Of a stretch of DNA of 64,000 bases, positions 38,050 to 38,197 are shown piece by piece (position 1 is the stretch's first letter; each line of letters starts with the position of its first letter). The notes beneath the pieces were generated by a model. That model ran no database searches, was not told the origin of the DNA, and saw only the letters and a list, made by a program, of their open reading frames with translations. A program made the position numbers and the translations under genes. The DNA is from Microbacterium sp. (GTDB lineage: Bacteria; Actinomycetota; Actinomycetes; Actinomycetales; Microbacteriaceae). Location of the stretch: contig JAVBUG010000158.1 of NCBI GenBank assembly GCA_031555515.1, positions 1,591 to 65,590 of the forward strand, written 5' to 3'.

Positions 38050-38197
38050 GCACGGGATTGAGGGGTGCCGCCCCAGTCCCATGCGGCACCCCTCGAGGTT
38101 CGGCGGCGAAGACCCATAGCCGATTCATCGTCCCCAAGAGGGTCTTCTGTCAGCCGCTCCCCGACCCCCCGTCGGCGAAGCGCAAGCCGTTCCGCAG
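38050..38197 (-). ncRNA. Candidate structured small RNA downstream of the CHAT gene
   Basis: Promoter-like element at 38203-38233; hairpins at 38161-38175, 38108-38147 and a 12-bp stem at 38060-38094; G-rich loops; no credible ORF. Confidence 0.4.

Follow-up and report, generated by a model that had tools for sequence, protein, structure and literature searches.

In enterobacteria, the autoregulating extracytoplasmic function (ECF) sigma factor sigma-E drives the promoters of the small RNAs (sRNAs) MicA, RybB, and MicL, which form the noncoding arm of its regulon; MicL arises beside or within the 3' end of a protein-coding gene. Other ECF-like sigma factors are co-encoded with an inhibitor and a protease, as in the Csx29 (TPR-CHAT)-Csx30-RpoE module of type III-E CRISPR systems and in CalpL-CalpT-CalpS (PMC10028731; bioRxiv 10.1101/2024.05.08.593097). 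According to PMC8999054 (citing Huang 2015 and Casas-Pastor 2021, PMC7826278), ECF54 is without a classical anti-sigma factor and is encoded near subtilase and CHAT proteins, and the papers on ECF54 that we read give neither a target promoter nor a regulon nor an RNA target. The 6C sRNA is reported to bind G-rich targets by its C-rich loops without a chaperone (PMC6486639). Here we analyze a 64,000-nucleotide stretch of high-G+C DNA from Microbacterium sp. (contig JAVBUG010000158.1, positions 1,591 to 65,590; referred to as the window). In it, genes for an ECF sigma factor, an anti-sigma-like open reading frame (ORF), an S8 subtilase, and a TPR-CHAT protease lie consecutively on the minus strand, in an order that is collinear across orthologous loci, and are followed by a predicted structured sRNA. 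This element lies in the 213-nt spacer (38245-38033) between the CHAT gene and a LysR-like ORF, which lies beyond it on the opposite strand and ends at 38032.

It is very likely that the element is a genuine sigma-dependent structured RNA. As a whole, the data are probably best explained by an independently transcribed Microbacterium sRNA of ~140 nt that would be driven by the adjacent sigma factor and act as a decoy. The initial annotation of the window had proposed that an RNA of ~150 nt, made from a second copy of the sigma promoter, is the direct output of the cascade. The present analysis strongly supports this proposal: the promoter motif is conserved at exactly these two sites, a covarying structure follows the -10 box, and the element travels with the CHAT gene and not with the LysR-like gene.

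A covarying RNA structure downstream of the CHAT gene

CHAT orthologues were collected from 26 of 36 sampled genomes of the genus (27 loci; the first sample), and a second sample comprised 80 further Microbacterium-type loci of ~14 kb each. Alignment of eight sequences with MAFFT, followed by RNAalifold, recovered only the terminal hairpin (T) and a wrong local helix. Because the middle of that alignment was misaligned, Infernal was seeded from two collinear sequences instead. For this covariance model (R1), two collinear copies from other species were aligned and the structure was written from their individual folds. R1, which was never trained on the window, detected a full-length copy at 38053-38202 on the minus strand (40.2 bits; E = 6e-7), and the window copy scored 90.1 bits against a second model (R2). 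The fold begins with a closing stem (P1) around hairpin H1 and continues with a single-stranded junction and helix P2, within which lie an unpaired segment and hairpin H3. After the 3' strand of P1 comes T, which is G+C-rich throughout the family and has a stem of 12 to 14 bp.

Covariation was assessed in two sets of sequences. Among nine sequences, 92.6% of the cells held standard pairs compared with 74% after shuffling, and none of 500 shuffles reached 92.6%. Changes on both sides were observed in 27 of the 42 pairs (14 were expected), and slid partner columns were 35 to 51% paired. The H1 stem had changed on both sides in seven of its eight pairs and P2 showed compensatory changes in all eight, while the T stem was 99% paired across species with a mostly invariant sequence. 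Forty further sequences aligned to R2 gave 92.2% paired cells, compared with 72% (maximum, 74%) after shuffling, and compensatory changes in 35 of the 42 pairs, with slid controls at 33 to 53%. In this larger set, G-U pairs outnumbered A-C mismatches (106 versus 34), an excess that fits the CHAT-sense strand as the transcribed strand. The alignments were fitted to the model and so are biased toward its structure; the size of the effect, together with the independent detection by R1, argues that the structure is real. The distances between anchors ranged from 87 to 115 nt with no modulo-3 preference, a negative result in this coding test, and therefore the element is not coding. The initial annotation had called for a covariation analysis downstream of CHAT orthologues, which yielded the conserved structure described here, and for a search of Rfam. 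The element matched no family of Rfam 15 at an E value of ≤10 in the window or of ≤1 in eight orthologous loci.

The three hairpins on the minus strand were present where the initial annotation had placed them. Within P2, the inner strand GAAGACCC (38147-38140) pairs with GGGTCTTC (38115-38108), and the stretch between them includes UCUUGGGGA at 38139-38131. T has a perfect 12-bp stem formed by GAGGGGTGCCGC and GCGGCACCCCTC (38094-38083 and 38071-38060), with the loop ATGGGACTGGG; the tail that follows it is AAUCCCG in the window, against a consensus of gnCUUCn. The structured domain begins 9 to 10 nt downstream of the CTC (-10) box; the 5' end of the sRNA was placed 6 to 9 nt after this box and the 3' end just beyond T. 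It had also been stated that the only local ORFs run antisense into the LysR-like gene. This is true of the three minus-strand ORFs that cross the region (37406-38137, 37794-38372, and 38125-38382), and the one that was scanned (37406-38137) had no Pfam match.

Four unpaired G-tracts are nearly invariant while the stems vary. They lie in the H1 loop (GGGG at least 90% conserved), in the junction (CUGGGGGC), inside P2 as (U)UGGGG, and in the H3 loop. Conservation extends to their flanks, and CUGGGGA is the most frequent unit. Motifs of this type are displayed four to seven times per RNA, in hairpin loops and single-stranded linkers, and their number depends on the lineage: one subgroup has an extra hairpin, T2, with a AUCUGGGGA loop, and in the window's subgroup the T loop contains ACUGGGG. 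The 160 nt past the second promoter copy contained a mean of 3.9 GGGG tracts, compared with 0.6 in background windows. Two candidate pairings of the G-tracts were rejected. Kissing of the T loop (ACCCAG) with CUGGG is possible in one subgroup, and it is not general, since the T loop differs elsewhere, including in the window. Pairing with the five CCCC tracts of the repeat array in the S8 gene amounts to just 4 bp with mismatched flanks; this array (41842-41977) consists of five tandem 21-nt repeats encoding PYGTRTN units.

Promoter motif and distribution of the RNA

The 12-mer ATCCGTGTATCA occurs at two sites on the minus strand, at 38222-38233, before the hairpins, and at 43650-43661, ahead of the sigma gene. 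When two or fewer mismatches were allowed, it was not rarer in the window than in shuffles. In the first sample, an exact TGTATCA-N16 (rarely N17)-CTC motif was found 6 to 80 nt past the CHAT stop codon in 22 of 27 loci, and in three of the remaining loci the motif and the RNA lay 0.5 to 7.7 kb further downstream. In the second sample, 76 of 80 loci had the motif 10 to 140 nt past the end of the CHAT gene, and three loci were without any second promoter copy. Of 20 orthologous upstream regions that were fetched, 19 also had the motif ~30 nt ahead of the sigma start codon, as does the window. The spacer sequences between TGTATCA and CTC are unrelated among loci, and CTC is invariant. Two fixed boxes with a variable spacer, of which one copy precedes the sigma factor's own gene, are the classical signature of an autoregulated ECF promoter. 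Throughout the 80 loci, the operon-strand motif was essentially confined to the two sites, and there was one opposite-strand match in the whole set. A scan of the window region for consensus promoters and terminators returned no site, which is expected because the promoter is of the ECF type and T has no U-tail.

Genome-wide, CHAT-positive genomes contained a mean of 3.5 motif matches, compared with 1.4 in CHAT-negative genomes and ~2 for a reversed control pattern, and there is therefore an excess of about two matches. In five genomes the matches were exactly these two sites. By this count, the two sites make up the whole motif excess in most genomes. For this reason, the RNA is the main predicted target outside the sigma factor's own operon, with no further predicted targets in most genomes, and it is probably the main output of the cluster.

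The genome from which the window comes has three further TGTATCA-N16/17-CTC matches, at G000:C275:3126-3151(+), G000:C299:648-674(+), and G000:C383:249-274(+) (loci L070, L071, and L072), each 35 to 80 nt upstream of a plausible, correctly oriented gene start. The genes that follow encode a DUF6220 membrane protein; an S8 subtilase, then HopA1-like and LanC-like proteins (a lanthipeptide-type cluster); and an Hsp70-like protein, then an AAA_16-LuxR regulator. This genome may have a larger regulon, or a paralogous sigma factor may use the same motif.

Sigma homologues with 43 to 55% identity were examined at four loci from other genera of the order. The motif was directly upstream in two of them, at L156:5179(-) and L160:3378(+), and ~1.8 kb from the sigma match in the others, at L158:4000(+) and L161:3902(-). 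No second copy was found after CHAT in any of the four. Sigma factors of this lineage therefore seem to recognize TGTATCA-N16/17-CTC. The motif probably marks the lineage, and the RNA, because the loci from other genera have no second copy after CHAT, is probably an addition specific to Microbacterium.

The distribution of the RNA follows that of CHAT. The genome of the window, which is metagenome assembled (387 contigs; 85% complete), has a single copy, and one copy per genome is the rule. The RNA was found in 24 of the 26 CHAT-positive genomes of the first sample and, as a G-tract RNA, in ~74 of the 80 loci of the second (62 by R2 and 12 variants by inspection). Ten CHAT-negative Microbacterium genomes gave no credible match, nor did ~100 further genera of the family, each represented by two genomes. 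Weak covariance-model matches in G000:C237, G030, G182, and G026 proved to be ordinary terminators or coding sequence. The strand of the downstream gene was assigned from LysR homology together with a G+C content that is higher at first than at second codon positions (GC1 > GC2); calling by third positions (GC3) only proved unreliable. Among 73 classified loci, the downstream gene was a convergent LysR gene in 36, another convergent gene in 23, and a same-strand gene in 14. The RNA is kept beside CHAT when the downstream gene differs, and the element therefore belongs to the CHAT operon and not to its neighbor. The suggestion that it is the orphaned leader of a lost gene was not supported: it is kept in ~74 of 80 loci, the next gene is convergent in 59 of 73, and there is no codon periodicity.

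Predicted mode of action and alternative explanations

In the mechanism that we propose, the sigma factor would stay inactive until proteolysis by S8 and CHAT clears away its inhibitor. Active sigma factor would then fire two promoters, that of its own operon and that of the RNA, and read-through transcripts of the operon should also end in the RNA, because no terminator separates the two. The RNA would act as a multivalent decoy through its exposed G-tracts. The partner that we favor is the 6C sRNA with its C6 loops, or else C-rich loops in other RNAs, and binding of the 6C loops would release the G-rich mRNA targets of 6C. We lean slightly toward a decoy mode in general, and we put forward 6C as the specific partner only tentatively, as something that may well prove otherwise. 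A 6C homologue with two exposed, near-invariant C6 loops was found in the genome of the window and in 16 of 40 sampled relatives. The window genome's own copy (G000:C110, ~10520-10600; L153:1519-1602) was missed by a whole-genome search with RF01066 and was recovered by BLAST with the copy of a relative; UUCCCCCCAU, the second loop of this 6C, hardly varies across Microbacterium. From these sequences, a G-tract sponge for 6C is chemically plausible. The likeness of the T stem (GGGAUGCCGC) to the second hairpin of 6C is not specific, as the genome has this stem in three more hairpins and it also occurs in unrelated terminators.

In a bolder reading, the cluster would work on its own as a proteolytic switch in the cytoplasm, much like Csx29-RpoE and CalpL-CalpS, with a dedicated RNA effector: its sole output would be a G-tract decoy for 6C or for an RNA-binding factor, which would reprogram the cell. 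We consider this speculative and rather unlikely. If it is true, the cluster would be a signaling or defense module with an sRNA as its sole output, leading, for example, to growth arrest or to a stress or defense state.

Several observations weigh against the proposal of a sigma-driven decoy RNA, in whole or in part. We infer promoter activity, and its dependence on this sigma factor, from the sharing of the motif. Three of the 80 loci have a protein gene, and not the RNA, behind the second promoter copy: in L090 (8799-10620) and L134 (8957 onward) this copy is followed by a leader of ~65 nt with a CUGGGG motif and then by the gene for a 576-residue vWA-domain protein, and in L126 (8504 onward) it precedes a tyrosinase-like gene. 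In the genome of the window, the three extra motif matches upstream of protein genes mean that the RNA is not the sole predicted target. Hairpin T, being without a U-tract, does not have the form of a canonical intrinsic terminator, and the consensus scan found no terminator-like site. The minus-strand fold of the 213-nt spacer has a z-score of -1.69, and 14 of 200 shuffles fold equally well. P1 is weak in the window (~4 bp) and H3 is degenerate, with H1, P2, and T intact. On its own, then, the window sequence is not better than chance, and it is the comparative evidence that makes the element significant; by comparison with its relatives, the window copy is a somewhat eroded member of the family. 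As regards 6C, the complementarity is between G-tract and C-tract only, to which the conserved C-U and A flanks add no pairing. The 6C loops and the motif flanks are both invariant and therefore give no information by co-variation. For the whole-molecule duplex of the RNA with 6C (-79.5 kcal/mol), 75 of 200 shuffles and 45 of 400 genomic windows gave an equal or better energy, so that this value, too, is uninformative.

The alternative that survives best is a protein-sequestering decoy of the CsrB/RsmZ type, in which the CUGGGGA repeats would bind and titrate a candidate RNA-binding protein, possibly one encoded in the module. We judge it to be unlikely as it stands, and a protein that reads CUGGGGA to be about as likely a partner as 6C. 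It would account for the conserved motif flanks, which 6C pairing leaves unexplained, and it is consistent with the four to seven displays in loops and linkers, with a copy number that varies by lineage (the T2 hairpin with AUCUGGGGA and the CUGGGG in the T loop of the window), and with stems that covary around a fixed motif. A hairpin with a CUGGGG loop also occurs before the S8 gene in the window's clade. Against it, no RNA-binding domain was recognized in the module proteins in Pfam, NCBIfam, and PADLOC scans, and CsrA (PF02599), the known GGA-binding protein, was detected in only 13 of 40 Microbacterium genomes (for example, at G004:C2:641868-642020). CsrA was not found in the window's genome, at 85% completeness, nor in G021 and G023, two complete genomes with the RNA. 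Many RNA-carrying genomes are without a detected CsrA, and this distribution rules it out as the general partner. The presence of CsrA in about a third of Microbacterium genomes was itself unexpected for Actinobacteria. The CsrA-bearing genomes overlap the subgroup with the extra CUGGGGA hairpin, an overlap that may reflect shared ancestry.

It is improbable that the element merely serves the CHAT operon as its 3' untranslated region and terminator zone, or works as a bidirectional terminator for that operon and the LysR gene convergent with it, with no function of its own. Convergent genes do flank it in the window, with no terminator between CHAT and the element; stems like T recur across the genome as ordinary terminators; and the plus strand of the spacer folds with the better z-score (-3.24). 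A terminator, however, requires neither the four covarying helices upstream of T nor the four invariant unpaired G-tracts, and it would not explain a dedicated promoter-motif copy that is conserved in 76 of 80 loci. The element also remains with CHAT where other genes replace LysR, and the excess of G-U pairs over A-C mismatches fits the CHAT-sense strand.

At least four conserved tracts of four to six G residues, spaced 8 to 17 nt apart, could in principle fold into an RNA G-quadruplex in place of the helices, giving a cation- or ligand-dependent switch. We regard this as highly unlikely because the covarying helices would, by geometric inference, put successive G-tracts at opposite ends of the 8-bp P2 and the 6-bp H3, and one molecule should not be able to hold both these helices and a compact quadruplex. 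Least probable of all is that the element acts in cis as the leader, riboswitch, or attenuator for a gene downstream that is lost in the window or present elsewhere: a same-strand gene follows in 14 of 73 loci and the leader in L090 and L134 precedes the vWA-domain gene, but the next gene is convergent in the other 59, the same-strand genes that follow a full RNA in L089, L095, and L098 have their own TAGAGT-like -10 box, and the strong hairpin T closes nearly all copies.

The locus and its relation to known systems

The features of the locus are listed in Table 1.

Table 1. Coordinates of the predicted sRNA, its promoter motif, and the associated gene module in the window
Feature	Position	Strand	Remarks
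Predicted sRNA, ~140 nt	38055-38196	minus	Covariance-model match and covariation; both ends predicted
Hairpin H1, CCGAC-GGGGG-GTCGG	38175-38161	minus	First G-tract in the loop
Helix P2, GCGGC..GAAGACCC with GGGTCTTC GCCGC	38103-38157	minus	Encloses unpaired UCUUGGGGA
Terminal hairpin T, loop AUGGGACUGGG	38060-38094	minus	G+C-rich 12-bp stem; presumed terminator without U-tail
-35-like box TGTATCA, second promoter copy (P2pr)	38222-38228	minus	Exact TGTATCA after the CHAT stop codon in most orthologous loci
-10-like box (G)CTC, second promoter copy	38203-38206	minus	16 nt downstream of the -35-like box
First promoter copy (P1pr), TGTATCA-N16-CTC	43631-43656	minus	~28 nt upstream of the sigma start codon at 43603
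ECF sigma factor	43603-42986	minus	Pfam Sigma70_r2; NCBIfam, only a generic sigma70-ECF match
Anti-sigma-like ORF, 155 residues	42996-42529	minus	Overlaps the sigma stop codon
Operon-internal hairpin GCCGCGGC-CUGGGG-GCCGCGGC	42479-42500	minus	Between the anti-sigma-like and S8 genes; loop motif equals that of the sRNA
S8 subtilase	42455-40761	minus	Pfam Peptidase_S8
TPR-CHAT protease	40732-38246	minus	Pfam CHAT

The anti-sigma-like ORF had no family match in Pfam and NCBIfam scans. PADLOC matched the module to no defense system and gave just weak subtilase-type matches to S8 and a marginal BovA match to CHAT. The CUGGGG(G) loop of the operon-internal hairpin is kept in only ~10 of 72 loci, those of the window's clade, and elsewhere the hairpin has different loops. 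Because the loop is so confined, a link between this hairpin and the sRNA is tentative. The same hairpin gave a weak match to the Rothia-sucC family of Rfam on the plus strand.

The LysR-like ORF (37259-38032, plus strand) comprises 257 residues. Pfam recognized the substrate-binding domain alone, from residue 65, and the NCBIfam alignments begin near profile position 110; the N terminus is of low complexity, and no helix-turn-helix was seen in any upstream frame. From its sequence, the ORF probably encodes a regulator that is truncated or in decay. Two tandem TPR-CHAT paralogues are present in some genomes (L104, L110 [CHAT matches 6001-12813], and L101), with the promoter copy and the RNA after the second paralogue. 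In another locus (L009:3985-4470, genome G012), inverted and direct repeats, long and nearly identical and with units containing GGTCGTTGAGCGAGGAGCG..., form an array that is inserted between the CHAT stop codon and the promoter-RNA unit.

A literature search found no published description of the Microbacterium RNA, and the conclusion that it is a new sRNA family specific to this genus is well supported by the comparative sequence data. TGTATCA-N16-CTC would be the first concrete predicted promoter, and the RNA the first predicted target, for an ECF group without a known regulon. An RNA target suggests that protease-gated sigma switches can act via RNA. A structured RNA family is also added to a phylum in which few sRNAs are understood and CsrA is mostly absent; to our knowledge, Hfq and ProQ are absent from it as well.

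In the presence of TGTATCA-N16/17-CTC at both sites in most loci, the RNA agrees with the class of ECF-sigma-dependent sRNAs. Compared by general knowledge, it resembles MicA, RybB, and MicL as the RNA arm of an ECF sigma factor. Those sRNAs, in contrast, repress mRNAs through a single-stranded seed and Hfq, have no repeated array of loop motifs, and share neither sequence nor fold with the Microbacterium RNA. Unlike them, too, the latter appears to be the principal predicted target beyond the operon of its sigma factor, and in many cases the sole one.

The adjacent, ECF54-like sigma factor shares its operon with Peptidase_S8 and CHAT genes, and in this gene neighborhood it agrees with what is described for ECF54. 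As in the Csx29 and CalpL modules, a TPR-CHAT or other protease is found beside an ECF-like sigma factor and its inhibitor, and proteolysis would be expected to free the sigma factor. Unlike those modules, the Microbacterium locus has no CRISPR or cyclic oligoadenylate (cOA) sensor, and we know of no RNA output of the Csx29 or CalpL systems.

In its architecture, the RNA is similar to CsrB and RsmX/Y/Z, since its stem-loops and linkers expose a repeated G-rich motif, its stems vary, and its copy number of the motif depends on the lineage. It differs from them in the motif, which is CUGGGGA (containing GGA, with other conserved flanks) instead of A(N)GGA, in its ECF-type promoter, in having no match to the Csr/Rsm families of Rfam, and in that CsrA was not found in the window's own genome or in most of the genomes that carry it. 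6C (RF01066) occurs in the same phylum and the same genomes and likewise is a short RNA with homopolymeric tracts in its hairpin loops. Unlike 6C, which is found phylum-wide and is not adjacent to the module, the Microbacterium RNA is not a member of RF01066, and it exposes G4 to G6 where 6C exposes C6. The two RNAs may be partners and are not relatives. The G-tract RNA is thus a mirror image of the widespread 6C sRNA, and a sponge relationship between them is directly testable.

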